DNA of 64,000 nt, from contig JBCCJK010000001.1 of the NCBI GenBank assembly GCA_039027815.1, positions 52,779 through 116,778 of the forward strand. The letters run 5' to 3'. The position numbers were made by a program, and so were the translations under genes. Each line of letters starts with the position of its first letter. Positions within the stretch are counted from its first letter, which is position 1. The notes under the pieces are model-generated. The model was not told the origin of the DNA, did not search any database, and saw only the letters and a list, made by a program, of their open reading frames with translations. This document shows positions 3,854 through 64,000 of this stretch, in pieces. Source of the stretch: Verrucomicrobiota bacterium. GTDB lineage: Bacteria > Verrucomicrobiota > Verrucomicrobiia > Verrucomicrobiales > JBCCJK01.

Positions 3854-6800
3854 TCAGGCAGTGCGATACTTGCGAGCGACCACCAGCCGGTAAAGCGCCG
3901 GAGTGAAGACGGCCGCCAAAAGAGTGGCCCCGCCCACTCCTCCCGCCAGCACGATGGCAAGCGGTGGCCAGAATTGGCCTCCTATCAGCAGCAAGAGCGG
4001 TAGGAAACTCCCGATGGTGGTGAGCGTGGTGCTCACGAGGTGTCGGCCGATTCCCATGATCTGCCGAGTCATGGCATCGATCTCTCCTCGCTTCGCCTGG
4101 GGGTCGGCGTAGAGGGCGGCCAGGGCCACGATGTTGTCATTGAAAGTCAGACCGACCAATCCGATGCAACCTAAAATGGTGTTGAAGCTGACCGGAAAAT
4201 CCATGACCCAAGTGGCCAGTAGCCCATAGCCCACCGCCAAAGGAGCCGTCAGCAGAAGGATGCCCGCCACGCGGACACTCCGGAAGGAAAGAATGAGAAT
4301 CGCGATCGTGAGCGTGACAATGACCGGCAGATAGAGCTGCAAATTGCCAAGGGCCTCCGCTTGGTTCTCGGATTCCCCGCCCACTTGGAGGCGATACCCG
4401 GCCGGTGGCTGGAAGCCGGATTCCTCCAGCTCTTGCAGGACCTGCTGGGTGATCTCGATCGGAAGGGCTCCCACCTGGGAATAGCCCCGCACGAAGTTGA
4501 CCCGTTCTCCATTGAAGCGCGTGATCGCTCCCGCTTCGGGGCGCAGTTCAAAGCCTCCTACCGTGCGAAGCGGGACCGGCTCGCCCTCGTCATTGATCAA
4601 ACGCAGGTCGGCCACTCCATCGATTTCCCGCCGTCGCTCGCTCGGCACCCGCACCCGAATGGGCAGTTCCTCGACCGCCTCGATCAAGCTCCCCCCTTGC
4701 AGGCCTTCCAAGTGGGTTTGCAACTGGTCGGCAATCGATTGCAGGCTGAGACCCGCTGTGAGAGCGCGCTCTTCCTGCGCATTGAACCACAGTTTGGGCT
4801 CCCCTCGTTTCAGGGTGGATTCCACGTGGAGGATATCGGGATGCTCTCCGAGACGTCGCTGGACCTCATCGCCCAGCGCTTGGAGGGTGGCGATGTCGGG
4901 GCCGAGAAGGCGAATCTCCACATCCGCAGGAGCCGGTGGCCCTTGGGCGAACTTGCTGACCCGGACGAGCGCTTCGGGGAAGGCTTCGTCGAGTCGTTTT
5001 TGCAAGCTAGGCACCAGTCGATCGACCGATTCAAAGGAATCTGCCTTGATGGCGGCCATGGCGTAGTTCGGCGAGTTGTCCCGATTCTCAATCAGATTGT
5101 AGTAGACGGGAGGGAAGGTCGCTCCGGCCAACCAATGGACATGTTCGATTCCCGCTTCCTCGCGAATGAGAGCCTCCATCTCGGCCGTGACCGCCACCGT
5201 CCGTTCGAGAGACGTGACAGTCGGAAGATCAAATTGCACCGTGAACATATCGCGGTCGGTCCGCGGGAAAAATTGGCTGCCGAGACCAGCCGCCGCCATG
5301 AAGCCCAGAATCGGGACGGAGATCCCAATCAAAAGGCCTAGCCAAGGACGCTGGATGGACTGCCGGATGAGGCCTTGCATGGCGCGCGTGAACCAGGGCG
5401 CGCTCACCCCCTCGCGCAGCCAACGCCACCTTCGTCTCCCACCGCCCGTCTTGGGGAGAGACGAGAACAGACCCGCCATGGCAGCGATTAAGGTTAGCGA
5501 AATCACGAAGGAGAGACTGATGGCTAAGATGACGCTGTTCCCGATCGAGCCCACAAAGTCGCCCGCATTGCCCGGCAACAAGAGAATGGGGAGGAAGGCC
5601 AAAACCGAAGTCAGGGTCGAGGACAGCAGGGGCACGAAAAGATGCTCGATGGCCGCGATGACCGCCTCCCGGCGGCTCTTTCCTTTCTCGAGGTATTTGC
5701 GGACCTCGTCGGTGATGACAATGGCGGTATCGATCAAGAGCCCCAGGGCGATGATCATGCCGAAAATCGACATCTGATGCAGCTTCCCTCCTTGGAGCGA
5801 AAGCGCGAAGAGCACCGCCGCGGCCGTCAGGGGGAGAGCCGTGCTCACGATGAGCGAGCGCCGCCAACCCATTGTCAAAAGAATCACCACCAGCACCACG
5901 CCTGCGCCCAAAAAGAGATTGCCCACCAAGTCGCTCAAGCGGGCCTCGGTGTAGACATTCTGCCGGTAGAGCACCTCGGCTGAGATCCGACCGCCGAGAT
6001 TGGCTTGGAAGTCGGCCAAGACTTGGTCGGCCGCCCCATCCCACTGGTCCACCCGCCCCCCGTCCTCCACCCGGGCCGCCACCAAGATGGCTCGTTGCCC
6101 GTCGGCAAAGGCCACCTGTTCGGGAGGATCCGTCCAGGAACGGGTCACTTGGGCGATGTCCGCTAGCCGGATGGTGCGCGACTGGTCCTCACTCTGGAAA
6201 ACGATGACCTCCCGCACCCGCGCCAGAGAATCCAAGCGCCCATCCACCTCCACCAAAAGGTTGGCGGCCCCTCCTCGCACCAAGCCCGCTGGGACCTTGA
6301 CATCGGCTCGACGAAGCGCCTCGGCCACGTCGCGGGAGGTCAACTGCCGTTGAGCCAACTCCTCCGGTTGGATTTCCACCGTGATCTCCTCAGAGGGCTT
6401 GCCGTAAACTCGCACCAGTTGCGTCCCGCTCACCCCGCGGAGCCGATCAGCCAAATCCTCGGCCCGCCGAGCCAAAATCCCCAACTGCTCCTCCCCTTTG
6501 GCCGCCTCGGCCCAGCGCAGTGCCACCAGGAGCGTGTAGGCCACCGTACTCCGCTTGTTGTCGAAGTCGGGCGGCAGAACTTCAGAGGGAAACTCCTGGG
6601 CGGCGGCGTCGACGGCATCGCGGATCTCCGAAGCGATCGGTTCCACCATGTCACTTTGAACCGCGTCCTTGTATTCGATCGTGATGAGCGAGATGCCCGA
6701 GCGGGAGGTCGACTGGATTTCTTTGATTTGAGAAATCTCTTCCAGTTCGGACTCGATTTTCTCGGTCACCAGGGCCTCGACCCGGTCGGCCGAGGCTCCT

Positions 6801-11426: not shown

Positions 11427-11440
11427 GCCCACGCCTCCGC

Positions 11441-11652
11441 CTCATACCAAGCTGCAGAATTGGCTGGTAGAATGGCCGAGTGGATTTCGGGCCAGACCAA
11501 GGCGCGACGAGGGCGCGGTGCAAGCACCGTAACCGAGGAGCAACGCTGGGCTGGCTCGAAAGACACCGGCTCTCCCTTCCCCGCGCTTCAGCGCCTCTTC
11601 CCCACAACACCTTCCCTCCATTCTTCCAGTGAATTCTGGAGGTTGGTATCAG
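11441..11652 (+). repeat. 212-bp MITE-like / structured repeat, copy 1
   Basis: One of four equal-length copies with 3 differences from the consensus. TIR is ATACCAAGCTGCAGAATTGGCTGG ... CCAGTGAATTCTGGAGGTTGGTAT. Lies between convergent yebC and the nucleotidyltransferase gene, and contains the latter's stop codon (11649-11651). Confidence 0.9.
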
Positions 11653-12554
11653 AAAAGCCTCTCGGGATACTCTCCGGAATCGATGAGCTTTTGGATGCTA
11701 GCGATCACCTGTGGTCGATCCTCTTGGTAGGTCACGCCGAACCATGGGCTCTCTGTTTTCCGCACTCGAACTTCCGCCTTCCCATCCTGGATGAACTTGT
11801 CCACCTCCGCCGGGACATACCACTCGCTCGTGAGCTCCCCGCCTCTGGCCCGCAAAAACTCCACGAAAGAACGCTCCAGGAGCTGGAAGAAGCTGGGACG
11901 GAAAAGCCAGAAATTCATGGAAGCGAGCTCCTCTCCCGTGAGAGCGCACTCCTGGCCCTCCTCCTCATTGTAGACCCCTCCTTCTTTCGCCACGATCTTG
12001 GTCATCTCCTTAACCGAGGTGAGAAAGCCCCGCTCGTTGGCACGACAGATCCCACGGGCGACCGAGCCATACTCCGACAAGGTGTTTTTCAGTTGGAATC
12101 CCACCATTCCATACTGGGCCTTCTCGGACTCATCCCGCTCTTGGGACAGCTCTGCCACCGCCACTTCAAAAGCCTTCCGCCCATAAAAGTCATCCGCGTT
12201 CAGCATGGCAAAGGGTTCCTGGATCAGCTCACGTGCAGCCAAAACCGCATGCGCCGTGCCCCAAGGCTTCTCTCGACCTTCTGGCACAGCAAAGCCCGCC
12301 GGCACATCTTCCAGAGTTTGGAAAGCGAAGTCCACCGGGACCCGCCCTTCATACTTGGCTGTCACCTTCTCGCGAAAGGCCTGCTCAAAGTCCCGGCGGA
12401 TCACAAAAACCACCTTCCCGAAGCCGGCCCGCCGAGCATCGAAGACCGAGTAGTCCATCATGACCTCACCATGCGGCCCCATGGCGTCGAGCTGCTTGAG
12501 CCCGCCATAGCGGCTTCCCATGCCAGCAGCCAAAAGGAGGAGAGTAGGCTTCAC
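11649..12554 (-). CDS. Sugar-phosphate nucleotidyltransferase family protein
   Basis: 301 aa with a GTG start. The N-terminus MKPTLLLLAAGMGSRYGGLKQ is the NTP-transferase glycine-rich loop. The stop TGA lies inside repeat copy 1. Confidence 0.8.
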   Translation of the reverse strand: MKPTLLLLAAGMGSRYGGLKQLDAMGPHGEVMMDYSVFDARRAGFGKVVFVIRRDFEQAFREKVTAKYEGRVPVDFAFQTLEDVPAGFAVPEGREKPWGTAHAVLAARELIQEPFAMLNADDFYGRKAFEVAVAELSQERDESEKAQYGMVGFQLKNTLSEYGSVARGICRANERGFLTSVKEMTKIVAKEGGVYNEEEGQECALTGEELASMNFWLFRPSFFQLLERSFVEFLRARGGELTSEWYVPAEVDKFIQDGKAEVRVRKTESPWFGVTYQEDRPQVIASIQKLIDSGEYPERLF

Positions 12555-12633
12555 CGGGGCTGCCTACCCATCCTGGGGCAGGCACGCAAGATTCAAGTGA
12601 AACCAAGATCCCCTCCCCTCCGGCGCTTGGCCC

Positions 12634-12845
12634 CTGATACCAAGCTGCAGAATTGGCTGGTAGAATGGCCGAGTGGATTTCGGGCCAGACCAAGGCGCGA
12701 CGAGGGCGCGGTGCAGGCACCGTAACCGAAGAGCAACGCAGGGCTGGCTCGAAAGACACCGGCTCTTCCTTCCCTGCGCTTCAGCGCCTCTTCCCCATAA
12801 CACCTCCCCTCCATTCTTCCAGTGAATTCTGGAGGTTGGTATTAG
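12634..12845 (+). repeat. 212-bp MITE-like / structured repeat, copy 2
   Basis: 6 differences from the consensus, no indels. Contains the stop codon TAA (12842-12844) of the ArsC-family gene. Confidence 0.9.
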
Positions 12846-13192
12846 AAGACCGCTTCCCACTCGGCCGGTCGGAAGCCCGAAAGAGCCGTTTTCCCTTGAA
12901 TCACAAAAGGGCGTTTCACGAGGTTTCCGTGCGTCGAAAGCGCCTCCAAGATTTCCGCCTCGCTGGCCTGGGAAAAGGTTGCTTTCCAGCCATCGCGATA
13001 ATCCTGGCTCGAGGTATTGGTGATCTTGCGCCAATTTCCGGCAGCCGCCACCAGGCCCACTCGCAGTTCGGCCACGCTCGGGGGCGTTTCTCGAATAGGG
13101 ATTTCCTCGAAATCGACTCCCCGTGCCTCCAACCACTTCTTCGCCTTGCCGCAGGTCGAACACTTGGCGTAGCCATAGAGTTTCCAACTCAT
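12842..13192 (-). CDS. ArsC/Spx/MgsR-family (YffB-like) thioredoxin-fold protein
   Basis: ORF 12842-13357 trimmed to the Met at 13192. MSWKLYGYAKCSTCGKAKKWLEARGVDFEEIPIRE... is the typical ArsC-family N-terminus with a CxxC-like motif. Confidence 0.8.
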   Translation of the reverse strand: MSWKLYGYAKCSTCGKAKKWLEARGVDFEEIPIRETPPSVAELRVGLVAAAGNWRKITNTSSQDYRDGWKATFSQASEAEILEALSTHGNLVKRPFVIQGKTALSGFRPAEWEAVF

Positions 13193-35371: not shown

Positions 35372-36142
35372 ATGTTCCTACTCTCCACCGATATCGATGG
35401 AACCGTGTATGAGCCGCGCGACAATGGCCAACTCTTCGGAGACTACTGGGCCAAATTGCAAGGGCGACTGACCCCCGCCCCGCGCTTGGTTTACAACACC
35501 GGGCGTTCTCTCGCCGACACCCGTCGACTCATCGAACACAGCCATTTGCCCGACCCCGAATGGATTATCTCCGGCGTAGGTTCCACCATCGCTCAAAGAG
35601 GTGCCTCGGGTCCCTTTGCCCCCTGGTCGGAACACCTCTCTCCCGGTTGGGAACAGGCCGCCATCCACGACTACATCGGCCAGCAAGACCTGGCCCAAGC
35701 CCAACCCGCCGAGTGCCAATCTTCTTTCAAATCGAGTTGGTTTTGGGAAAACGCCTCCCCGGAAGCGCTGGCACAGTTGGAGCAAGGGCTGCGTGCCCAG
35801 GGTTGGGAGGCCCAGCTGGTCTACTCCTCCCAACGAGACCTCGATATCCTGCCGAAGCGAGCCAACAAGGGAAACGCGCTTCGCTTTTTGGCTCAGGAGT
35901 TGGTTGTTTCACTTAGGGAAGTCATCGTGGCCGGCGATTCTGGGAATGATCTCTCTATGATCGAAATCCCCGAAGTCTTTGGGATCATTGTGAACAATGC
36001 CGAGTCCTCTCTCCGGGAAGCCTCTTTTGCTAGCCCGCGCTATTTGGCCTCGGAGGAAAGCGCCCTCGGCGTTCAGGAAGGCTTGGAGTCTTTCTTGGAA
36101 AAACCCCCGCTCCCCCGCCCCGCCGCGGCCGACCCATGCTGA
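35372..36142 (+). CDS. spp: Sucrose-6F-phosphate phosphohydrolase (HAD-IIB)
   Basis: 256 aa with HAD motif I LLSTDIDGTV and motif IV AGDSGNDLSM. Overlaps the SPS start by 7 nt. Confidence 0.75.
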   Translation: MFLLSTDIDGTVYEPRDNGQLFGDYWAKLQGRLTPAPRLVYNTGRSLADTRRLIEHSHLPDPEWIISGVGSTIAQRGASGPFAPWSEHLSPGWEQAAIHDYIGQQDLAQAQPAECQSSFKSSWFWENASPEALAQLEQGLRAQGWEAQLVYSSQRDLDILPKRANKGNALRFLAQELVVSLREVIVAGDSGNDLSMIEIPEVFGIIVNNAESSLREASFASPRYLASEESALGVQEGLESFLEKPPLPRPAAADPC

Positions 36143-38367
36143 AAGACCTTTATCTTGTCCATCTCTCGATCCACGGGCTCATTCGCGGGACCAACCTGGA
36201 GCTGGGTCGCGATGCCGACACCGGTGGCCAGTGCAAGTATGTCCTGGAACTGGTCAAGGCCTTGGCAGAACATCCTTCCACCGGGCAAGTGGATCTTTTC
36301 ACCCGCCAAATCATCGATCCCAAAGTCAGCGCCGACTACAAGAGGCCCGAGGAAAAAATCGCCAAAAACGCTTTCGTCAAGAGAGTCCCGGCCGGCCCCA
36401 AACGCTACCTTCGCAAAGAGACCCTTTGGCGGCACTTGGATGAATTTGTCGATCAATGCCTGGCCCGCTTTCGGGAAGCCGGACGTCTCCCGGACGTCAT
36501 CCATGGTCACTACGCCGATGCCGGTTATGTCGGCAGCCAGTTGGCGTCCCTCTTAGGGTGTCCCTTCATCTTCACGGGGCATTCACTAGGTCGCACGAAA
36601 AAGGCGCGCCTCCTGGTGGGGAAAGCCGATCCCCAGCGGATCGAAAAACGCTACAATCTCGGGGCCCGCTTGGAAGCCGAGGAAATGGCCCTCGACGCGG
36701 CCTCTTTTGTCTGCACGAGCACGACCCAGGAAGTCGAAGAACAGTATTCGGTCTATGAAAATTACGATCCCGCTCGCATGCGGGTCATCCCGCCCGGCGT
36801 CGATGTGGATCGTTTTGCCAAGCCCGTCCCTCCCCCGCTGCGAGAGCGAGTGGTCGCCAAACTGGGTCGTTTTCTGCGAGCGCCGGATCGACCCGCCATC
36901 CTGGCCATCGCCCGCGCCGACGAGAAGAAGAACCTCAGCTCTCTGGTGAAAGCCTACGGCCAAAACCAAGGCCTTCAAGAAAAGGCCAACCTGGTCATCG
37001 TGGCTGGCAATCGCGAGTCGCTCTCCGAACTGAACGCCGGAGCGCGCCGAGTCTGGACGGAGCTCCTCCAACTCATCGATGACTTTGATCTCCATGGCCG
37101 AGTCGCCATCCCCAAACAGCACGAACCCGATGAGATCCCGGCCTTCTATCAGTTTGCCGAGCAAACGGGTGGTCTCTTCGTCAATCCCGCCCTCACCGAA
37201 CCCTTCGGACTCACCTTGATCGAGGCCGCCTCGGCCGGGACCCCCGTCGTGGCCACCCATGATGGCGGACCGCAAGACATCCTCGCCAACTGTCAAAATG
37301 GTCTCCTCGTGGACCCCACCAACATCCCGGAAATCTCCCAAGCCCTCAGCCAAGCGCTCTCTGACCAGAAACAATGGCGCACTTGGTCGGCGTCTGGCAA
37401 GGAGGGCGTCCGCCGCCACTACTCCTGGCCCGGGCATGTCGAACGCTACCTCAAAGAAGCAGAAGGCTTTCTCAAGGAAATCACCGAGCCCAATCTCATC
37501 CTCCAAAAGCAGCGAACTGGCCTGCCTCTGACCGATCGCATTGTCTTCACCGGCCTGTCCGATGACTTCCTGGAAGGCGATGCCGAAGCCCTCGCCAGCG
37601 CGCGAGAAATCCTCGAGTCGGACGTGCCCAAATTGGGCTTCGGGATTGCCAGCGGACGCGACCTGAAGTCAGCCATTTCCCTCCTCCGGGAACTCGGCCT
37701 CCCGCAACCGGACGTCTACATAACGCAGTTAGGCGCAGACATTCACTATGGGTCCCGCAAAGTGCTGGACAAAAAATGGCACCAACATCTTTCCTATCGC
37801 TGGGACGCCGAGGGGATTCGGCAGCTCCTGGAGGGCGTGCCCGGGATCCGCTTGCAGACTGAAAAGGGTCGCCAGCATCCCTTTAAGATCTCTTACCACT
37901 ACGAAACCGAGGTCGCCGACTCCCGTCGCGCCCTCCAAAGGCTGCTTCGCGAGGCCAACCTGGCGGCCAAGGTCATCCTTTCCCAAGACAGCCTGCTCGA
38001 TATCATACCGATTCGCTCCGGCAAAGGTCTGGCCATTCGCCATGTGGCTTGGCGTTGGGGCATTCCGGCCGACAATGTGCTTTTTTATGCCCGCCGAGGC
38101 AGCGACTACGAAGCGCTTTCTGGTCAGTTCTTGGGAGTCCTCGGCTCTGACCACTCCCCGGAACTCAAACCGACCGCCCACCTCCCCCGGGTCTACGCCT
38201 CGCCCTACCCCAACTTCCGCGGCCTCCTCGACGGCATCCGCGCTTACCAGTTCGACACCCGGATCCGTGTCCCCAAAAGCGCTCAAGGCCTTGAGCCCGT
38301 CGGCGGCCAGGAACAAGAGTCCGCCTTGCAACCCGACGTCGTCGTTCATTTCGACAAAGAAGAATAA
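36136..38367 (+). CDS. sps: Sucrose-phosphate synthase (GT4 domain + C-terminal SPP-like domain)
   Basis: 743 aa. The N-terminus LVHLSIHGLIRGTNLELGRDADTGGQCKYVLELVKAL is the characteristic SPS signature. EPFGLTLIEAAS GT-B motif is present, followed by a C-terminal HAD-like domain. Confidence 0.85.
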   Translation: MLKDLYLVHLSIHGLIRGTNLELGRDADTGGQCKYVLELVKALAEHPSTGQVDLFTRQIIDPKVSADYKRPEEKIAKNAFVKRVPAGPKRYLRKETLWRHLDEFVDQCLARFREAGRLPDVIHGHYADAGYVGSQLASLLGCPFIFTGHSLGRTKKARLLVGKADPQRIEKRYNLGARLEAEEMALDAASFVCTSTTQEVEEQYSVYENYDPARMRVIPPGVDVDRFAKPVPPPLRERVVAKLGRFLRAPDRPAILAIARADEKKNLSSLVKAYGQNQGLQEKANLVIVAGNRESLSELNAGARRVWTELLQLIDDFDLHGRVAIPKQHEPDEIPAFYQFAEQTGGLFVNPALTEPFGLTLIEAASAGTPVVATHDGGPQDILANCQNGLLVDPTNIPEISQALSQALSDQKQWRTWSASGKEGVRRHYSWPGHVERYLKEAEGFLKEITEPNLILQKQRTGLPLTDRIVFTGLSDDFLEGDAEALASAREILESDVPKLGFGIASGRDLKSAISLLRELGLPQPDVYITQLGADIHYGSRKVLDKKWHQHLSYRWDAEGIRQLLEGVPGIRLQTEKGRQHPFKISYHYETEVADSRRALQRLLREANLAAKVILSQDSLLDIIPIRSGKGLAIRHVAWRWGIPADNVLFYARRGSDYEALSGQFLGVLGSDHSPELKPTAHLPRVYASPYPNFRGLLDGIRAYQFDTRIRVPKSAQGLEPVGGQEQESALQPDVVVHFDKEE

Positions 38368-38390
38368 CCCCCCGATCCCCCGCGCCTGAA

Positions 38391-39302
38391 ATGAGCCAAG
38401 AAGCCCCACCCCTCCTCGCTGGTCTCGAAGCGGGCGGCACCAAGATGGTGTGCGCCGTGGCCCAGACCCCCGAGGAAATCCTGCGGGAAACCCGCATTCC
38501 CACCACCCAGCCGGAGGAAACCCTCTCGGCGGTAGCCGCCTTCTTTCGGGAAGCCACCCAAGACTTCGGCCCCTTGGCCTCCCTTGGCATCGGCTCCTTT
38601 GGCCCCGCCAACGTGCATGCCCGCTCCCCAGGTTTTGGAGAAATTCTCACGACTCCCAAGGAAGGCTGGACGGGAGTGAATATGATCCAGCGAGTCCAAG
38701 AGCAGTTGGCTGAACCGGTCCCGATCGCCTTCGACACCGACGTGAACGCGGCCGCCATCGGGGAGGCCAGTTTCGGCGCCGGTCGCGGTCATCGCTATGT
38801 CTGCTATGTCACCGTCGGCACGGGCATCGGCGGCGGATTTCTCATGGATGGGCAGCCCTTGCACGGGCGGATGCATCCAGAAATCGGCCACATGGCCATG
38901 CCGAATCTGGATCTCGAATACGGGAAAGACACCAATGTTTGCCCCTTTCACCTCTCCTGTTTGGAAGGTCGTGCCAGCGGTACCGCGCTCAACACCCGCT
39001 GGGGCCAGCATGGGAGCGAGCTGCCCGAGGACCATCCCGCCTGGGAACTGCATGCCCGCTATCTCTCGCTGGCCGCCATGAATCTGACGGCCGCTTGGTC
39101 GCCCGACGTCATTCTCTTTGGCGGAGGAGTCTTCCAACAGGCGGGCTTGATCGACCGCATTCGCAGCACCTTTGAGAAGGATACCGGAGGCTATTGGTCG
39201 CTCCCGCCCCTCGATGTCTACCTGCAAACCCCCGAGCTCGGCCAGCAGGCCGGCATCGTGGGAGCCCTGGTCATGGCCCAGCGAGCGGTCACCCCATTCT
39301 AA
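38391..39302 (+). CDS. ROK-family fructokinase
   Basis: 303 aa with motifs LEAGGTKMVCAV and VGTGIGGG, plus a Cys/His zinc motif (HPEIGHM...CPFHLSCLE). Confidence 0.8.
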   Translation: MSQEAPPLLAGLEAGGTKMVCAVAQTPEEILRETRIPTTQPEETLSAVAAFFREATQDFGPLASLGIGSFGPANVHARSPGFGEILTTPKEGWTGVNMIQRVQEQLAEPVPIAFDTDVNAAAIGEASFGAGRGHRYVCYVTVGTGIGGGFLMDGQPLHGRMHPEIGHMAMPNLDLEYGKDTNVCPFHLSCLEGRASGTALNTRWGQHGSELPEDHPAWELHARYLSLAAMNLTAAWSPDVILFGGGVFQQAGLIDRIRSTFEKDTGGYWSLPPLDVYLQTPELGQQAGIVGALVMAQRAVTPF

Positions 39303-39309
39303 CGCGGTT

Positions 39310-41265
39310 ATGAGTTCCCCTCACCAAGCCAGCGATCGACAGATCCGGGTCACCCTGGAGCGGCTTCTGGCCAAGCTTCAGGAGCGGTTTCCCGTGGAAA
39401 GCCAGACGCCCGATTGGGAAGTCTTTGAGCTGCGTTTGCGGGATCACTTTCCAGCCCTTTTCGGACGTCTCCTGACCCTCTACGGGGGGCACTTTGATTT
39501 CTTCTACCACCTCTTGAATCTCGCCGAAACCATGGTGCGGCTGTGGGTGGAGCGGCCAGCCGAATTGCGCAGCATGGACGCCATTCGGGAGGGGGATCCC
39601 ACTTGGTATCAGTCGGGGCGACTGGTCGGGGCCATGGCCTACGTCGACCTCTTCTCGGGCGATCTCCAGGGACTCCGGGAGCAAATCCCCTATCTCCAGT
39701 CTCTCGGCATCACCTACCTCCACCTCATGCCTCTCTACCAAACGCCGGAGGGCGACGATGATGGGGGCTACGCCGTCAGCAGCTACCGTGAAGTGGACGC
39801 CCAACTCGGGACGCGAGCCGACCTGGAGGAGCTCACAAACGAACTCCGGCAGCACGGCATCAGCCTGGTCCTCGACTTTGTCTTCAATCACACCTCCGAC
39901 CAGCACCACTGGGCCCGCCGAGCCCGCGAAGGGGATGAGACCTTTCAGGACTACTACCTCATGTTCGACTCCCGGCGGGAGCCCGACGAATATGAGCAAC
40001 ACCTCCGCTCCATCTTCCCGGATGATCGGCCGGGCTGTTTCACCTATATCAATCGACTCAAAAAATGGGTCTGGACCACCTTCCACACCTACCAGTGGGA
40101 TCTCAATTACCGCAATCCCGAGGTCTTCATCGCCATGGTGGAAGAAATGCTCTTTTTGAATAACCTAGGCGTGGAAGTCTTGCGTATGGACGCAGTGCCT
40201 TTTGTTTGGAAGCAAAAAGGCACCAACTGCGAGAACCTGCCCGAAGCCCATTTGGTGATTGAGGCCTTCAATGCCATCACCCGGGTCGTCGCTCCCGGTG
40301 TCATCTTCAAATCCGAGGCCATCGTGGCCCCCGATCAAATCTCCGAATACATCGCGACCGACCAATGCCAGTTGTCCTACAATCCCCTCATGATGTCGCT
40401 CCTCTGGGAGGGACTGGCCACTCGGAGCGCCAAGCTCTTGCGGCATTCGCTGCAAAAGCGACTCGACATCGCGACTGGCTGTTCCTGGGTCAACTACGTC
40501 CGAAGCCACGACGACATCGGCTGGGGCTTTGACAATCGCGATGCCGAAGAGCAGGAGATCGACCCGCATGGGCACCGGCACTTTCTCACCCAATTCTTCG
40601 CAGGTCGTCACGAATCCACCTTCTCGGATGGAGACACCTTCCAAGAAGACCCTCGCACGGGGGACGCCCGCATCGTCGGGACGACCGCTTCCCTCTGCGG
40701 CTTGGGCCTGGCCATGGCCGCGGCCGACGAACGGGAAATCAAACTCGCCCTGGATCGCATCCTTCTCCTCTACAGCATCACCTTCACCATCGGGGGGATT
40801 CCCCTGATTTACCTGGGGGATGAGATCGGGATGCTCAACGATCCAAGCTACCGGGAAGATCTTGATAAAGAAGGCGACTCTCGTTGGCTGCATCGGCCTT
40901 ACTTTGACTGGGACAAGGCCGCCCAGCGCCATGTCGCCGGCACGCCGGAAAATCTGCTCTTCCAAGGATTCCTGAAACTGAATCAAATCCGCATGAACAA
41001 CTCCGCGCTCGCCCAAGGCGAGACCGAAGTCATTCATACCGAGAATGACCACGTCCTTGGTTGGTTCCGCACCAACTCCGAGCAATCCGTCCTCTGTCTG
41101 GGAAATTTCAGCGATCGCACTCAATCGATCGCCGCCACCCGTCTCCGGCAACTCGGTCTCCGTAAAGCCTTGGTCGATATCGTGGCCGGCAAGCACATCC
41201 TGGCATCCAAGCGGCTTGAATTGGAGCCTCTTCAGTTCATGGTCCTTTTGACCCAAGGCGGATGA
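39310..41265 (+). CDS. Amylosucrase (GH13)
   Basis: In-frame ATG at 39310 within ORF 39172-41265. DLFSGDLQGLREQIPYLQSLGITYLHLMPLYQTPEGDDDGGYAVSSYREVD...LVLDFVFNHTSDQHHWA closely parallels Neisseria amylosucrase as I recall it. Confidence 0.85.
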   Translation: MSSPHQASDRQIRVTLERLLAKLQERFPVESQTPDWEVFELRLRDHFPALFGRLLTLYGGHFDFFYHLLNLAETMVRLWVERPAELRSMDAIREGDPTWYQSGRLVGAMAYVDLFSGDLQGLREQIPYLQSLGITYLHLMPLYQTPEGDDDGGYAVSSYREVDAQLGTRADLEELTNELRQHGISLVLDFVFNHTSDQHHWARRAREGDETFQDYYLMFDSRREPDEYEQHLRSIFPDDRPGCFTYINRLKKWVWTTFHTYQWDLNYRNPEVFIAMVEEMLFLNNLGVEVLRMDAVPFVWKQKGTNCENLPEAHLVIEAFNAITRVVAPGVIFKSEAIVAPDQISEYIATDQCQLSYNPLMMSLLWEGLATRSAKLLRHSLQKRLDIATGCSWVNYVRSHDDIGWGFDNRDAEEQEIDPHGHRHFLTQFFAGRHESTFSDGDTFQEDPRTGDARIVGTTASLCGLGLAMAAADEREIKLALDRILLLYSITFTIGGIPLIYLGDEIGMLNDPSYREDLDKEGDSRWLHRPYFDWDKAAQRHVAGTPENLLFQGFLKLNQIRMNNSALAQGETEVIHTENDHVLGWFRTNSEQSVLCLGNFSDRTQSIAATRLRQLGLRKALVDIVAGKHILASKRLELEPLQFMVLLTQGG

Positions 41266-45031: not shown

Positions 45032-45730
45032 CTACACCCCGCGCTTGCTCCCATACAAGCGAACATGCAGTCGGTCAGAAAAGCGGTAGCCATGCTGGAG
45101 ACACAGCTCACTGACCCACTCGGATTTCTCGTCGAGCGCCTCCAGCATCGTGCCTTCTGGCATAAGGAAAATCCGCTCCGCCTCCAAGCCCAACTCACTG
45201 CGGAGTTTCTCCACTTCCGAAAAATCCGCTTCGCTCGCGATGACAAACTTGAAATCCGCCTTCCGGCTTTCCGCGAAGAAACGCAAAGCCCTCTCCCGTT
45301 GCCGAACCTCTTCCCGGTTGCCAGAGTTCGCCAGTTTTGGGGAGACCGCATAGTAGTCAGCCCGCCCTTCGGTGACCTCGCTCGGTCGGATGGTGCCGTT
45401 GGTCTCAAACTCCACCCGGAAATCCCCCCCCAGCAGGGGCCAAAGCTGTCCTAACTCGCTTTGTTGCACGAGAGGCTCTCCTCCGGTGAAAATCAGATTG
45501 CGACATCCGTAAGAACGAATTCGGCTCGCCAAGTCTGCCACGCTCATCTCGTAGCTCTCTTTTTCCTGATCGAACTCTTTCCAATTCCAAGTGTAAGCGG
45601 TGTCACACCAGCTGCAGTGCAAGTTGCAGCCGGAAAGGCGGACGAACACGCTCGGGCGACCGGTATGCCGCCCTTCCCCTTGGAGAGAATGGAAGATTTC
45701 TGGGCCATCGCCGCATCGCGCTAGCTTCAT
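45032..45730 (-). CDS. queE: 7-carboxy-7-deazaguanine synthase (radical SAM)
   Basis: 232 aa. IFHSLQGEGRHTGRPSVFVRLSGCNLHCSWCDT is the QueE cluster motif. The start overlaps the gyrA stop. Confidence 0.85.
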   Translation of the reverse strand: MKLARCGDGPEIFHSLQGEGRHTGRPSVFVRLSGCNLHCSWCDTAYTWNWKEFDQEKESYEMSVADLASRIRSYGCRNLIFTGGEPLVQQSELGQLWPLLGGDFRVEFETNGTIRPSEVTEGRADYYAVSPKLANSGNREEVRQRERALRFFAESRKADFKFVIASEADFSEVEKLRSELGLEAERIFLMPEGTMLEALDEKSEWVSELCLQHGYRFSDRLHVRLYGSKRGV

Positions 45731-48327: not shown

Positions 48328-48355
48328 TTCAATCTCCTCTTACTCCCCTCTTTGC

Positions 48356-50944
<2,589 letters not shown>

Positions 50945-52772: not shown

Positions 52773-52943
52773 TAGCAAGCTGGTAGAGAAAAGAATTCTC
52801 AGGCGGGCAAGAAGAAGAGAGGGACAGCGCGTCGATTGCCTGTGTCATCGTCTCTTCGGTAGTGTGCCAGAACCGCCCCCCGGCTGAGCACGTCGATCGA
52901 TTGAACAAACCAAAACCAGCGACTGGATTCCGGCCGATTGGTT

Positions 52944-58808: not shown

Positions 58809-58836
58809 CCGCTTTTTTGATAGCCGCTCGCCCCGT

Positions 58837-59048
58837 CTCATACCAAGCTGCAGAATTGGCTGGTAGAATGGCCGAGTGGATTTCGGGCCAGACCAAGGCG
58901 CGGTGAGGGCGCGGTGCAGGCACCGTAACCGAGGAGCAACGCAGGGCTGGCTCGAAAGACACCGGCTCTCCCTTCCCCGCGCTTCAGCGCCTCTTCCTCA
59001 CAACACCTCCCCTCCATTCTTCCAGTGAATTCTGGAGGTTGGTATCAG
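58837..59048 (+). repeat. 212-bp MITE-like / structured repeat, copy 3
   Basis: 3 differences from the consensus. Lies between the TonB-dependent receptor stop (59051-59053) and the tRNA-Asp promoter. Its TCA triplet (59045-59047) is in frame with the receptor CDS. Confidence 0.9.
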
Positions 59049-59050
59049 GC

Positions 59051-61129
59051 TCAGAAAGTAAAGGTCGTCCGCACACCCGCCATGGCCGGGGTGCCGATCG
59101 ATCCGACCCCTCCGGGCAAGGTCACATTGCGATTGGTGAAATACTCCTCATCGGTCAAATTCTCACCGAAAAGGACGACCTCGAAGGCCTCCTGGGCGAA
59201 GCCCACTTGCGCGCTCACCAGGGCATAAGCTGGCTCCTCAGCCAGCGGTGTTTCCAAATCATCATACCAAGTGTCCCCCACTCCCCGCAGGCCAACCCGG
59301 GCAAAAACGCCGGAGGGGTGCTGGTAGCGGATTCCGAGGTAGGCGTCGAAGGCCGGGGCATAGGGCACTCGATTGCCCGTCAGGTCCGCGCCCGTGACCG
59401 GGTCACGATAACTCTCAAACTCGGTCTGATTCACCCCGACCGACAACTCAAACCCGAGGCCATCGAGAGCATTCCCTTGGTTGAAAGGAGTGAAATCCAC
59501 TTGCAGCTCGGCCCCGAGCGAACTGACTTCTTCCGCGTTGGCAATGAAGTAATCCGTGGCGCTGAATTGGCGCTCCACCTGATAGTCCTCGACCCAGTAA
59601 TGATAAGCGGTCAGGCCGGCTCGCAGCCGACCGTCGAGCAGCGTCCCCTGCACGCCGAATTCCACAAACCAATTCCGTTCGGTATCGAATTCAGCCAAAG
59701 CCTCCGAATTCGCAAAAGCGCTGTAGCCACCCAGTTTGTGCGCCACGCCAAAATTGCTGAAGACCGTCCACTCCTCGGAAGCTTCCAGAGTGAAGCCCGC
59801 TTTGGGACTGAACTCGGCAAAATCTTGCTCGGTCGCCAGATCGGGAATGCGGAAAGGAAGGAGAGGACTCGTTTTGGAGCGGTTGAGCGCCTTGTCGGCC
59901 AAGTCCACGCGGGCACCGAAGAAAACACGCAGGGCCTCGACCGGTCGGTAACCTGCCTCGCCGTAGAAAGCGATTGTCTCCTCTTCGATCCGGAAAGTGG
60001 TCGTCTCCTCCAGGGGCACGATCCCGAAAAGTGTCGGTAGACCGATCCCGGTCACTCCCACTCCCTCAGTGGCATTGCTCGAGAGAAAGAGCCCTCCGCT
60101 CAGATCGAAGTCCTCCTCCCCGGGGCGATAGCTGACCCGCGTTTCCGAAAGCCATCCGATCTGCTCTTGCTCGATCCCGGAAGAAAAGAAAGGCAGGGGA
60201 GAGAAATCGAGGTCGGACAAATACGGGCTGAGGTCCCAACCGCGTCGAGCCAGAACGGTCGAGAAGTCCCACTCCTCGCCTTCGTAGGCCACCCGAAGCG
60301 AGACTCGATTGGCCTCCCGCTCCATCAGGCCAGGCGTCCCGGAGGCCACCAGACCGAAGTCCGCGCTCGCGAGCGACTGCAATTCGGGCGCGCCATCCTC
60401 CCAGCGATCCCACCCCGCCTGCAGTTCGGCCTCCCAGCCTGGAGCCGCCTTCCAAAGAAGCGAGCCAAAAACCCCGCCCCGCTCCCGATCGCCTTCCCGA
60501 ATGCCGAGTGCGCTATTGCGAAGAAAGCCGTCTCGCTGCTCATACTGGCCTCCGATCTGGAGGAAAAGGGTCCCCGGAATCAAGGGACCTCCCACCCAAC
60601 CGCTGGCACCCAAAAGTTGGTAGGTCCCGGCCTCAGTGGAAAGTCGGCCACCCCAAGTATCGCCAGGACGCTCGGACTCGATCTCCACCACCCCGCCGTA
60701 AGCGCCCGCCCCGAAGCGAGTGGTTTGCGGGCCGGTCCAGACCCGGGCAAAACTGGCATTGTCCAAGCCCCCCACAAAGGTGGAGGCATCGAAGTAGGGC
60801 ACCCCATCGACGTAAAAGCTGAGCGCCGGATCGCTGAAAAACGGGGTATTCGAAAGGCCCCTCACGGAATAGACATCCCCGTAACCGACCGTCCCGGCAT
60901 CACTCGCAAAGACATTGGGCGCCAAGAAGGTCAAGTCCTCCAAGTCGGAGACCCCTTCCTTGTAAAGCGTGTCGCCCGGGATGGGGGAGGTCGTCGCGGC
61001 GTAATCAAAAAGAACCGAGGAACGGGTGGCCACCGCCACCACCGGATCCGCTTCCAGGATTTCTTGGGAGAATCCAGGCACAAGCGCACACAGCCAAAAG
61101 GAGAGAGTCAAGGGGAGGAGGTTTTTCAT
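59051..61129 (-). CDS. TonB-dependent outer-membrane receptor
   Basis: ORF 59051-61387 trimmed to the Met at 61129 (signal MKNLLPLTLSFWLCALVPGFSQE). Has a plug domain (VYSVRGLSNTPFFSDPALSFYVDGVPY), beta-barrel repeats and a C-terminal aromatic ...TTFTF. Confidence 0.85.
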   Translation of the reverse strand: MKNLLPLTLSFWLCALVPGFSQEILEADPVVAVATRSSVLFDYAATTSPIPGDTLYKEGVSDLEDLTFLAPNVFASDAGTVGYGDVYSVRGLSNTPFFSDPALSFYVDGVPYFDASTFVGGLDNASFARVWTGPQTTRFGAGAYGGVVEIESERPGDTWGGRLSTEAGTYQLLGASGWVGGPLIPGTLFLQIGGQYEQRDGFLRNSALGIREGDRERGGVFGSLLWKAAPGWEAELQAGWDRWEDGAPELQSLASADFGLVASGTPGLMEREANRVSLRVAYEGEEWDFSTVLARRGWDLSPYLSDLDFSPLPFFSSGIEQEQIGWLSETRVSYRPGEEDFDLSGGLFLSSNATEGVGVTGIGLPTLFGIVPLEETTTFRIEEETIAFYGEAGYRPVEALRVFFGARVDLADKALNRSKTSPLLPFRIPDLATEQDFAEFSPKAGFTLEASEEWTVFSNFGVAHKLGGYSAFANSEALAEFDTERNWFVEFGVQGTLLDGRLRAGLTAYHYWVEDYQVERQFSATDYFIANAEEVSSLGAELQVDFTPFNQGNALDGLGFELSVGVNQTEFESYRDPVTGADLTGNRVPYAPAFDAYLGIRYQHPSGVFARVGLRGVGDTWYDDLETPLAEEPAYALVSAQVGFAQEAFEVVLFGENLTDEEYFTNRNVTLPGGVGSIGTPAMAGVRTTFTF

Positions 61130-61145
61130 GAGCCCCTCCCTCCCG

Positions 61146-61178
61146 AAAAAGAGGTCTCGGGTCAACTGAAAAGACCTC
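61146..61178 (-). terminator. Terminator-like hairpin + T5 between repeat copy 4 and the TonB-receptor start
   Basis: The minus strand reads GAGGTCT-(14 nt loop)-AGACCTC then TTTTT, followed by CGGGAGGGAGGGGCTC-ATG. The stem is 7 bp, and its 5' arm starts with the last 3 nt of the repeat. Confidence 0.4.
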
Positions 61179-61387
61179 ATACCAAGCTGCAGAATTGGCT
61201 GGTAGAATGGCCGAGTGGATTTCGGGCCAGACCAAGGCGCGACCAGGGCGCGGTGCAGGCACCGTAACCGAGGAGCAACGCAGGCCTGGCTCGAAAGACA
61301 CCGGCTCTCCCTTCCCCGCGCTTCAGCGCCTCTTCCCCACATCACCTCCCCTCCATTCTTCCAGTGAATTCTGGAGGTTGGTATCAC
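61176..61387 (+). repeat. 212-bp MITE-like / structured repeat, copy 4
   Basis: 4 differences from the consensus. Contains the stop codon TGA (61384-61386) of the FtsX-type permease gene. Lies 46 nt upstream of the TonB-receptor start. Confidence 0.9.
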
Positions 61388-64000
61388 TCATTGCGTAAGA
61401 ACGGCAGCAAGCTCCGGCGAAAGGAAAGAGCCGTGGCCCAACGCGACGCCAGATACCCCCCCACCAAAACCAGCGCCATCACCAGGAGCACCAGCAGCCA
61501 AGGAAAGGCCCCCCGCGCCCCCAAGCCGGCCGGCAAAACAGCGATCAAAGCGGCCCCCGCCCCCAGAGCGATGCCCCAGGCCACCAGCCCAAAGTGCTCA
61601 TGGTGAACCAGCGCCTGAAGACGGGAACGCCTCACCCCCACCCCCTCCAGGAGCGCCAACTGCCCCCGGAACTCCACCACATTTCTGCGAAAGAGGACGA
61701 GAAAACCGACGCAAGCGAGCAACAACCCGAAGCCACCCAAAAGGAGAAACATCTTGAGGTAGGTGTTCTGGACCTCGGCGTAGGCCAACAAGCGGTCCCG
61801 GGTCGTGCTCACCTCAGCCCCGTAAGCCTCGAGCGCGCGGGAAAGCGAAGCCACACTCGCCGAAGACGCCTCCCCCCCTCCCACCAGAAAAACCCGATGT
61901 CCAGCTTCCGCGGGGAAGAGATCCTGGAAAACTTGTTCATCCAAAAGAAGCGCGCCTTGGAGAATGGACGTCGCCAAAAGACCCACGATTTGGAAGCGCA
62001 AGGTTTCCTCTCCGGCGGGCAGCTCCACGATTTCGCCAAGCGACTTACCCAGGGCCCAGAGAGCTGAGTTTTGGTCGACCACCACGGGAACGGCTCCCCC
62101 CGTCCCCGCTTCCCGCAGAAGCGACCAGGCCGCGGCCTCTCCCTCTGCCAGACTGCTCGAAAAGGCAAAAGCCCCGCGTTCTTCCAAAGCGCGCGAAGAC
62201 ACCCCGAGCAGCTGCGGTCGCCGAGCTCGCGCCAGGTTCAGGCAGCTCGCCTCATCGCCGGGCAAGAGTCGCATCGGCAGCCACTCGCCTTCCCGCGACA
62301 GCCCCAGCGCATCCCGTTCGAAAGGATCGCGCAAATCAGGAAAAACCGGGAGCGCCGTTTCCACAAAGAACCGGTAGCCCCCCGTCGGCCCACCAGGCCT
62401 GGCCGAATCCGCCTCGCTCAAGCTGATCCAAAAAGCCAGCACCGCAGCCACCATGAAAAAACCAAAAGCCGAGATTCCCAAGACGGCCAGCGCGCGGTCG
62501 GGCCGCCCTCGCACCAGCTGAAGCGTCCCTAGAAACGGCTTCCGCGGCTGACTGCGCCACCAACTCCGGGCCCCCAAGAGCGCACTCAGCAGGAGCAACA
62601 TCCCGCCGCCGTAAAAAGCCCCCGCTGCGGCCTCCCCCGTGGAGCCTCGACCCGAGAACAAAAGGCCAGCGGCCCCCAGCGCCAAGCCGGCCGCCAGCCA
62701 CCAGGACCAGCGAGCCGCGCCTGCTTTCTGGGGCTGGCTAGTGAGCGCGCCCCCATGCAAAAGCGCCACCAGAGAGAGCTGGCGCAGAAGCCTGAAAACC
62801 GACCAAGCCACCACCAAGAGCGCGGGCAGCCCGGTGGCCAGGGCCCCCGCCAGAAAGCTCGCTTGCGAGACCACCAGCGCCACCTCCATCCCGACGGTGG
62901 CCCCACTCCAGGCCCCATTCAGGCCGCTTAAAAAAAGCTGAGCCACCGGGGCCGCCAAAATCATCCCTAAGCCAACGCCCAGAAAAGCCACCAGCAAACC
63001 CTCCGCCACCAGCAAGCGGCCAATCTGCCATCGGGTGAAGCCAACCGCCGCCAGCAAGCCCAGCTGGCTCTGCCGCTGCTCCACCCCAAAGCGAAAGGTC
63101 AAGCCCACCAGAATGAGAGCGGCCGCCACCAGGAAGACACTCATCCCGGCGAAAAGTCCCCCGAAGTCCATGGCCTCCTCCGCTGCCGCCAGCAATTCCT
63201 CGGTGTCCTGCGTGAGAAAACCGAATTCCGCGGGATCGATCTCCCGCTGGATGGCTTGCCGCAGCCGCTCTTCATCGAAGTCTGCCTCCGCCACCCGCCA
63301 CTCCGTCAGTTGCCCGTAACGATTGCCCCACAACTCCCGCGCGCGGGCATAGGGGAGGAGTGCTTTGGGCGTTTCGCCCCAGGTCGTCCAGTAGTCTTCA
63401 TCTTGATCGCGAATGGCCGCTTCCTCAAAAGGAATCCCCGGGTCCCAATCGCGACAATTCTCCGTCCCCATGACGCCTGGAATGTCCGGCACCCAACCGG
63501 CCTGGAGACCCTCATCCTCCATCGCCACGATCGCCTCCACGACCGACTCGGCGCGTTCCTCGCGCAGCTTCCCGTCCTCCTGCACTGCGAAGAAACGCAT
63601 CTCGAGTTTGTCTCCTAGGCCCAGCTCCAAATCATCGGCCAACCACTGATTGATCACGATCCCCTCGGGCGAAATTCCCTCCGGCACCGGGCCCACCCCT
63701 GGCGGAGCGCTCGCTACGAGCGAATAAGGCGCCGCCTCCTCTCCTTTGGCCAAGGCGTTTGCCAGATAAGAAAAAGAAGCCTCTCCCTCAGGGAAAGTCC
63801 CGCGCAGCACCTGCTCCAAGGAGGCATCCAGGAAAAGACGTTGGCTTTGGATCCGAAGGGTGCTCCCGCGCCAGGCCGGCTCGAGCTTCAGCCCGAAGTC
63901 TTCCGGAGTTTGCACCTCGCGGAAGGTCTCGATCAGCCGCTGGCCCTCCTCCTGGGCGGTCGCAATCACATTGACCTGGCCCTCCAACTCCGCCAAGCGC
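61384..64000 (-). CDS. FtsX/MacB-type ABC transporter permease with duplicated FtsX domains (N-terminus outside window)
   Basis: At least 870 aa, open to the window edge. Two FtsX 4-TM modules (..LLAAVGFTRWQIGRLLVAEGLLVAFLGVGLG.. and ..LLEGVGVRRSRLQALVHHEHFGLVAWGIALG..), separated by large extracytoplasmic domains. Confidence 0.8.
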   Translation of the reverse strand, partial: RLAELEGQVNVIATAQEEGQRLIETFREVQTPEDFGLKLEPAWRGSTLRIQSQRLFLDASLEQVLRGTFPEGEASFSYLANALAKGEEAAPYSLVASAPPGVGPVPEGISPEGIVINQWLADDLELGLGDKLEMRFFAVQEDGKLREERAESVVEAIVAMEDEGLQAGWVPDIPGVMGTENCRDWDPGIPFEEAAIRDQDEDYWTTWGETPKALLPYARARELWGNRYGQLTEWRVAEADFDEERLRQAIQREIDPAEFGFLTQDTEELLAAAEEAMDFGGLFAGMSVFLVAAALILVGLTFRFGVEQRQSQLGLLAAVGFTRWQIGRLLVAEGLLVAFLGVGLGMILAAPVAQLFLSGLNGAWSGATVGMEVALVVSQASFLAGALATGLPALLVVAWSVFRLLRQLSLVALLHGGALTSQPQKAGAARWSWWLAAGLALGAAGLLFSGRGSTGEAAAGAFYGGGMLLLLSALLGARSWWRSQPRKPFLGTLQLVRGRPDRALAVLGISAFGFFMVAAVLAFWISLSEADSARPGGPTGGYRFFVETALPVFPDLRDPFERDALGLSREGEWLPMRLLPGDEASCLNLARARRPQLLGVSSRALEERGAFAFSSSLAEGEAAAWSLLREAGTGGAVPVVVDQNSALWALGKSLGEIVELPAGEETLRFQIVGLLATSILQGALLLDEQVFQDLFPAEAGHRVFLVGGGEASSASVASLSRALEAYGAEVSTTRDRLLAYAEVQNTYLKMFLLLGGFGLLLACVGFLVLFRRNVVEFRGQLALLEGVGVRRSRLQALVHHEHFGLVAWGIALGAGAALIAVLPAGLGARGAFPWLLVLLVMALVLVGGYLASRWATALSFRRSLLPFLRNE

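Follow-up and report, generated by a model that had tools for sequence, protein, structure and literature searches.

Why does one end of a dispersed repeat lie, in copy after copy, on the stop codon of the gene upstream of it? The question is posed by a stretch of 64,000 nucleotides from a Verrucomicrobiota bacterium (positions 52,779 to 116,778 of contig JBCCJK010000001.1, assembly GCA_039027815.1), referred to here as the window. A repeat search finds one repeat family in it, present as four direct copies at 11437-11652, 12630-12845, 58833-59048 and 61172-61387. The repeat is probably a non-autonomous DNA transposon of the miniature inverted-repeat type (MITE), which duplicates a TNA triplet at its target, and the stop codon at its end is then the gene's own stop, present before the element arrived. 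On this account the overlap of element and stop is an ordinary consequence of target choice, and no new mechanism is involved.

The repeat family and its flanking triplets

The 216-nt blocks of the copies are 95-97% identical to the reference copy, and searches of the window with each element end, allowing up to three mismatches, recover no copies beyond the four. The sequence-only reading of this DNA had described four copies in one orientation, with the plus-strand triplets TCA, TTA, TCA and TCA at the end in question; the repeat search and the sequence agree with that description. Alignment together with the flanks sets the limits of a conserved core of 204 nt, TACCAAGC...GGTTGGTA, with pairwise identities of 96.6-97% among the four window copies. 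The core is bounded by imperfect terminal inverted repeats of 31 bp, which agree at 26 of 31 positions when one end is read as its reverse complement. Each window copy departs from the consensus by three or four private substitutions (three in copy 1) and none is shared, a star-like divergence typical of a recent burst. A 48-nt pyrimidine-rich tract (11571-11618 in copy 1, and its equivalents) contains several CCTCC motifs and is correspondingly purine-rich, with GGAGG, on the gene-sense strand. A further copy, the fifth, is found 4.5 kb to the left of the window, where the right end of the element occupies positions 1-28 of a Logan contig (L081, from SRR22824308; window position 1 is L081 position 4573). 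One base of the inverted repeat is variant at this end (GGAGCTTGGTA), and the TTA next to it serves a minus-strand NAD kinase gene as its TAA stop.

Directly outside the core, the left and right triplets are TCA/TCA in copies 1, 3 and 4 and TGA/TTA in copy 2. At all eight window flanks an invariant T and A enclose a variable middle base, and left and right agree in three of the four copies. Two occurrences of the element outside this genome extend the comparison. A protein collection searched with the concatenated translations of the element frames gives a single match, a 'VOC family protein' from a Verrucomicrobiota metagenome-assembled genome (MAG; NCBI MEM6912315.1, here P0001), whose glyoxalase fold is interrupted by the minus-strand frame of the element. 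The motif EPPH-L-AMC, invariant in 11 uninterrupted VOC homologues (67-76% identical), reads PPH-L-[YQPPEF...SQFCSLV]-L-AMC in this protein. The insert, residues 97-165, is exactly 69 residues long and consists of 68 codons of the element and one second Leu codon, in frame. Set beside its homologues, the protein shows, as far as translated sequence can, a filled site against an empty one, and with it the mobility of the element. The comparison gives an inserted length of 207 nt and a duplication of one triplet, and a duplication of TA is therefore ruled out.

The other occurrence comes from a representative library of 1.8 billion proteins, which, searched with the -0 frame, contains one real relative (P0243); two further matches, P0241 and P0242, were dismissed as false matches of low complexity. 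The relative occupies positions 4974-5177 of a contig in JGI metagenome 3300037574 (Ga0310926_0001172, here L082), where it had been annotated as a hypothetical protein of 59 amino acids. It aligns without gaps over 204 nt at 62% identity, keeps the termini TACCA...TGGTA and is enclosed by a perfect TGA/TGA duplication (4971-5180 with the triplets). The element sits there between divergent genes, Transgly_assoc on the minus strand and ATP_bind_3 on the plus strand, and its TGA/TGA is not the stop of any supported gene, though an antisense open reading frame (ORF) ends there.

Because the two sides vary together (TCA/TCA, Leu/Leu, TGA/TGA), the triplet is target DNA and not element DNA, and the flanking TNA is evidently a 3-nt target-site duplication. 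Element positions 209-211, which the sequence-only reading had counted as part of the repeat, are host DNA, and the same triplet is repeated at the opposite end. That reading had also proposed insertion into a stop-containing motif, with a duplication of TA or TNA concealed in the flanks. The TNA form is borne out by the direct repeats, by the interrupted VOC protein and by the TGA/TGA of L082. The TA form predicts an insert of 202 or 206 nt instead of the observed 207, entails a frameshift in the VOC gene and would also require a conserved 10-bp palindromic target. As for the motif, a sequence of the form (C)TNA(G) holds, while stops as such do not, in view of the Leu codon, the site between divergent genes and the placement of copy 3. 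The base before the left triplet is C in all four window copies, and the base after the right one is G in four of the five genomic copies; the VOC insertion is flanked by His (CAY) and Ala (GCN), which fits C-TNA-G. From these five to seven sites we infer a preference for C and G around the TNA.

Stop codons at the element end

In three of the four window copies the right-hand triplet is the actual stop of the upstream minus-strand gene, as the sequence-only reading had it; ORF tables and translations agree. They agree also on the exception, the TonB-dependent receptor upstream of copy 3, which stops two codons earlier: the protein ends in ...TFTF* at 59051-59053 and an in-frame GCC TGA follows. 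Two CTCAG sites stand here 6 nt apart, at 59045-59053, making up the in-frame sequence TGA GCC TGA. The element lies at the distal one and the true stop was not used. The in-frame placement of copy 3 is a one-in-three event.

The upstream proteins end where their families end. The nucleotidyltransferase closes with ...GEYPERLF*, and 17 homologues end in GEYPxxLF or GEYPxxLW plus 0-2 residues, one (L018) being 10 residues longer. In alignment the ArsC-family protein comes within two residues of where 3gkx_A ends, and the NAD kinase upstream of the fifth copy falls only a few residues short of the end of 7mh7_A. The permease has its last FtsX domain whole, with 19 residues left over. In the TonB-dependent receptor there is a stop ahead of the element and a terminal Phe; a terminal aromatic residue is standard for outer-membrane barrels. 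By these alignments the C-termini of all five upstream proteins are native, with nothing truncated and nothing donated. It follows that the stops would have pre-existed and that the duplication restores them.

The proposed course of events is as follows. A transposase encoded elsewhere would make staggered cuts at TNA, preferably within C-TNA-G, and the triplet would become duplicated on both sides of the element. TGA and TAA are themselves TNA, so that after insertion into a stop the gene-proximal duplicate would restore it and leave the protein unchanged. Stops would be hit often in a genome of 60% G+C whose short spacers contain very few other TNA triplets, while insertions inside genes, or in the part of a spacer nearest the promoter, would be removed by selection. 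Both the cut-and-paste (DDE-type) chemistry and the role of selection in this scheme are what we infer.

The frequency of available targets can be estimated from the window itself, in which 49 genes were predicted with a self-trained codon model and from which the elements were removed before counting. TNA sites number 43 at stop codons, 125 in intergenic sequence and 6 at gene edges, a stop share of 0.25; for CTNAG the counts are 10, 11 and 0, a stop share of 0.48. The last codon ends in C in 24 of the 49 genes and the stop is followed by G in 18 of 49, so stops are naturally good CTNAG sites. The probability of finding at least three of four copies on a stop is 0.05 under the TNA null and 0.28 under the CTNAG null. 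With the fifth copy included, the probability of at least four of five is 0.015 for TNA, 0.05 for the half-site and 0.16 for CTNAG. The four actual spacers hold only 2, 3, 3 and 3 TNA triplets including the stop, and conditioned on these the probability of at least three of four is 0.15. Their other TNA triplets fall within the last 45-90 nt before the next gene, a region in which an insertion is likelier to do harm. The coincidence with stop codons is, on these counts, weakly significant or not significant. The insertion in a Leu codon, the intergenic insertion and the site chosen by copy 3 together favour a target defined by sequence, combined with purifying selection, over recognition of stop codons.

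A rival explanation holds that insertion or retention is directed at the 3' ends of genes, either because the machinery senses the stop or its 3' context or because an RNA hairpin serves the upstream transcript, in its stability, processing or termination, or the downstream gene; selection for a 3'-UTR function was also among the options of the sequence-only reading. Four of the five genomic copies lie on true stops and the remaining one on an in-frame TGA two codons later, for which the plain TNA null gives P = 0.015 for at least four of five. All six copies with a host gene share one orientation relative to it (p = 0.03), the internal hairpin is kept by compensatory changes across 38% divergence, the plus strand folds with z = -5.8, and four times a downstream gene in the same orientation begins 49-92 nt from one and the same end of the element. 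On the other side, one insertion falls in a Leu codon within a gene and one between divergent genes, copy 3 passed over a real stop for an identical CTCAG 6 nt away, and the stop excess has p = 0.16-0.28 under the CTNAG null. Terminator and sigma-70 consensus sequences were not found in the element. The strand that folds strongly is antisense to the upstream genes, the gene-sense strand having z = -0.8, and the L082 relative folds no better than shuffled sequences. The five copies occupy one 69-kb stretch of uniform skew, in which orientation relative to genes and orientation relative to replication are inseparable. We regard a mechanism directed at 3' ends as unlikely.

The sequence-only reading had further offered the possibility that the element cuts off the 3' ends of genes and supplies a stop from its own terminus. 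In its favour three ORFs end at this one triplet position, where T-N-A does not vary; the covariation of the triplet on the two sides marks it as target DNA, all five upstream proteins reach the normal C-terminus of their family, and the receptor has a stop of its own before the element. Truncation of this kind is very improbable. Scarcely credible, finally, is the idea that the repeats are gene-cassette recombination sites like integron attC or VCR. Imperfect palindromes directly after stops in one orientation would suit such sites, as would the two pairs that bracket single genes, the nucleotidyltransferase and the TonB-dependent receptor (p = 0.014 for the clustering). The 3-nt duplication and the exact insertion in a conserved VOC codon do not, and the termini, TACCAAG and GTTGGTA, depart from RYYYAAC and GTTRRRY. 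Among the 40 Pfam-scanned window genes and 10 genes of Logan contig L001 no integrase was found, the two largest window genes (45727-50923) lying outside the scan. Between and next to the copies lie housekeeping genes and a tRNA gene, and the copies stand as far as 46 kb apart, without forming an array.

Several observations weigh against a TNA-duplicating MITE. The sample comprises five copies in this genome and two elsewhere, and the probability of 0.015 under the plain TNA null is nominally significant. The flanks of copy 2 are unequal (TGA/TTA) and need a later point mutation; either a point mutation after insertion or recombination between two copies could account for them. Three relatives of the interrupted VOC protein use CTC at the Leu position, and a TTA target there is a prediction. 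The five genomic copies and the intragenic copy are all co-oriented with their host gene (6/6; p = 0.03-0.06), which weighs against the reading because a palindromic target does not predict it. No transposase appears in the same scan of 40 window and 10 L001 genes, with the same two genes outside it, and no autonomous partner was found, the element being unmatched in genome, metagenome, viral, plasmid and phage collections. An exact 22-mer of the right end has no match in 185,579 species genomes, and a central 24-mer has none in viral contigs; a 20-mer has one in JGI metagenomes, in an unrelated low-GC coding region and attributable to chance; blastn of the element against plasmids and phages gives no match. 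The variant end GGAGCTTGGTA of the fifth copy shows that exact-word scans can miss copies. A DNA-level empty site was found neither among nucleotidyltransferase loci nor in the Logan contigs of the source sample. The closest other nucleotidyltransferase homologue is only 64-65% identical, the closest genome locus 72% over a partial match, and ArsC or YebC lies near the nucleotidyltransferase in none of 73 loci. Lastly, the ends of the element (TACCAAGCTGCAG... / TACCAAGCTGCAGAATT) are unlike the inverted repeat of ISLrh (GAACCTGTCTAGTATCT; PMC12016507), one member of the TNA-targeting IS1031 group discussed below, compared by eye.

Positions of the element copies, their parts and flanking triplets, and the genes upstream of them, in window coordinates
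Feature	Position	Strand	Basis or remark
MITE copy 1, 204-bp core	11445..11648	+	alignment, end searches
MITE copy 2, 204-bp core	12638..12841	+	alignment
MITE copy 3, 204-bp core	58841..59044	+	alignment
MITE copy 4, 204-bp core	61180..61383	+	alignment
Left terminal inverted repeat, copy 1 (same positions in all copies)	11445..11475	+	26/31 match
Right terminal inverted repeat, copy 1	11618..11648	+	26/31 match
Internal hairpin domain, element positions 31-126	11475..11570	+	compensatory changes in L082
Pyrimidine-rich tract, mostly unpaired	11571..11618	+	alignment, predicted fold
Copy 1 left duplication, TCA	11442..11444	.	alignment
Copy 1 right duplication, TCA; minus strand is the TGA stop of the nucleotidyltransferase	11649..11651	.	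ORFs
Copy 2 left triplet, TGA, unlike the right one	12635..12637	.	alignment
Copy 2 right triplet, TTA; minus strand is the TAA stop of the ArsC-family gene	12842..12844	.	ORFs
Copy 3 left duplication, TCA	58838..58840	.	alignment
Copy 3 right duplication, TCA; not a stop codon	59045..59047	.	translation, CTCAG count
Copy 4 left duplication, TCA	61177..61179	.	alignment
Copy 4 right duplication, TCA; minus strand is the TGA stop of the FtsX-family permease	61384..61386	.	ORFs
Nucleotidyltransferase gene, between copies 1 and 2	11649..12554	-	Pfam NTP_transferase
ArsC-family gene upstream of copy 2	12842..13192	-	Pfam ArsC
TonB-dependent receptor gene, between copies 3 and 4	59051..61129	-	Pfam Plug; start MKNLL... 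after GGGAGGGAGG
FtsX-family permease gene upstream of copy 4	61384..63996	-	Pfam FtsX; 5' part probably beyond the window

Copy 1 has as its convergent neighbour a gene that Pfam assigns to YebC/TACO1. The closest homologues of the nucleotidyltransferase are 64-72% identical and come from Opitutae/Verrucomicrobiota MAGs; no close sequenced relative of this organism is present in the collections searched. The longest ORF of the receptor gene (59051-61387, minus strand) runs through copy 4 and amounts to 778 amino acids from a GTG at the element end. The junction of copy 4, GGTA followed by TGA, also makes an ATG; the real receptor start is MKNLL... at 61129. At 63700-64000 the FtsX-family ORF meets no upstream stop before the window ends, and the membrane helix expected at the N-terminus is missing from its first 280 residues; the start of the gene is therefore probably outside the window. 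Elsewhere in the window, a plus-strand cluster at 35372-41265 encodes a sucrose-phosphate phosphatase, a ROK kinase, an alpha-amylase-family enzyme and a sucrose-phosphate-synthase-like glycosyltransferase fused to a second phosphatase domain. It looks like a locus of compatible-solute or sucrose metabolism and is unrelated to the MITE.

Folding, coding capacity and orientation

The plus strand of the element, which is antisense to the upstream genes, folds far better than shuffled sequences (-102 kcal/mol, z = -5.8), and the gene-sense strand has z = -0.8. The L082 relative folds no better than its shuffles on either strand. Between the window copies and L082, nine predicted pairs have changed on both sides and still pair, against one to three in slid controls; five of the nine belong to the internal helix at element positions 31-54/104-126. 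This suggests a conserved internal hairpin, in a structure that was derived from the same alignment and compared with one diverged sequence. The pyrimidine-rich tract is unpaired in the predicted fold and is the least conserved part of the element in L082.

The three codon positions have an even share of the differences from L082 (27/27/24). Internal ORFs of 59 and 50 amino acids were rejected as genes, since they display no codon-position bias and their exact sequences are absent from the protein collection; each copy carries these spurious ORFs, with a risk of mis-annotation. The element has no Rfam match in either gathering or E-value mode and contains no tRNA according to ARAGORN, and a tRNA-like origin of GGTAGAATGGCCGAGTGG was dropped when neither program returned anything for it. 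No sigma-70-like promoter is found in the element or beside it. One terminator-like pattern does fall in an element (copy 2, 12816-12835), within shuffle expectation, and hairpins of the native spacers are no better than shuffles. A role as terminator or promoter was set aside, no consensus sites having been found.

The GC skew keeps one sign over the 69 kb that contain all five genomic copies, and the orientation of the element with respect to genes is therefore not separable from its orientation with respect to replication. GC skew is negative across the window (1-64000), which places the window within one replichore, and 28 of the 49 genes are on the minus strand. The inserted length of 204+3 nt equals 69 codons, and there are no indels relative to L082 over 38% divergence. 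The frames phased by the duplication, +0 and -0, are stop-free in the consensus and in copies 1 and 2, as in 1.2% of shuffles, and each has gained one stop, in copy 3 or copy 4. Both phased frames are still stop-free in L082 after 78 substitutions, an outcome of 2-3% of neutral simulations. In-frame insertion in a conserved gene is represented by one case, the VOC protein. The window copies also form two direct pairs (11445-12841 and 58841-61383), each bracketing one gene, the nucleotidyltransferase and the TonB-dependent receptor respectively; two adjacent pairs among about 50 spacers have p = 0.014, and the flanking triplets of the pairs give no sign of movement as composite units.

Insertion of a MITE at TNA leaves three of these features unexplained: that the copies share one orientation, that the 3n length is conserved together with phased frames free of stops, and that copies stand in pairs around single genes. 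A tentative and rather doubtful extension would cover them by a codon-phased MITE that colonises stops, which are restored, and sense TNA codons, that is invisible to translation and retained in one orientation, and whose hairpin may have an RNA role at 3' ends. If the 3n length, the open frames in phase with the duplication and the single orientation were true genome-wide, this would be a mobile element selected for translational neutrality.

Apart from that extension, the family offers a clean illustration of why TNA-duplicating transposons end on TGA and TAA stops in GC-rich, compact genomes, and of how such an element can be mistaken for a regulatory motif associated with stop codons. It creates spurious ORFs and false N-terminal extensions, such as the 778-amino-acid reading of the receptor gene. 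It also breaks short-read assemblies of this organism at every copy: the Logan contigs L001, L076 and L081 of the source sample all break off 25-28 nt inside the element. The repeat thus fragments assemblies and is probably under-represented in MAG collections.

Relation to known mobile elements

The features by which bacterial MITEs are recognised are, an autonomous partner excepted, found together here: small size, no coding capacity, inverted repeats, a target duplication, dispersed near-identical copies (five within 69 kb at 96.6-97% identity, and one in another assembly) and a filled and empty site at the protein level. A literature search returned no description of this element, nor of any MITE in Verrucomicrobia, and the family is a previously undescribed one from a poorly sampled, Opitutae-like lineage of Verrucomicrobiota. 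A reading as palindrome-associated elements of the IS200/IS605 type, or as REP and BIME sequences, which have neither terminal inverted repeats nor a duplication and insert beside a fixed tetra- or pentanucleotide (REPs measuring 20-40 bp), is contradicted by the 31-bp repeats, the variable duplicated triplet and the length of 204 bp.

In its target the element resembles the Tourist-like MITEs, small elements with inverted repeats that are mobilised by PIF/Harbinger transposases, eukaryotic relatives of IS5. These produce a 3-bp duplication of TTA or TAA (TWA) within a longer palindromic target, which in maize PIF has the core CTTAG. Tourist and PIF are eukaryotic, whereas the present element has a bacterial host and a free middle base in its triplet (C, G/T, A and G are seen). 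Among bacterial insertion sequences, the IS1031 group of the IS5 family prefers 5'-TNA-3' and generates exclusively a 3-bp direct repeat (PMC12016507; PMC1676026). The TNA target, the 3-bp direct repeat and inverted repeats of a few tens of bp are common to that group and to this element, which at 204 bp is non-coding and whose likeness is one of target feature alone. Because its ends do not resemble the available repeat, the element is, on present sequences, not assigned to the IS1031 group.

In size class, inverted repeats, target duplication and placement near genes, the element is comparable to the Correia or NEMIS elements of Neisseria, MITEs of about 100-150 bp with inverted repeats of about 25 bp, TA termini and a target duplication, which are placed close to genes, co-transcribed with them and form long RNA hairpins (PMC2229807). 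Correia elements duplicate TA, and for them RNase III processing and effects on promoters are documented. The Rickettsia palindromic elements (RPE), the 107-bp Correia element, ERIC and YPAL are bacterial MITEs, small and palindromic, whose transcripts form stable stem-loops and whose frames contain no stops; they occur both between genes and, fused in frame, inside them (Delihas review, PMC2229807; PMC10969869). The present element differs from these in its host, Verrucomicrobiota, in its single intragenic case and in a duplication of TNA where theirs is of TA or absent; it is like them in its 69-codon insert, in the stop-free phased frames on both strands and in its in-frame insertion into a VOC protein.

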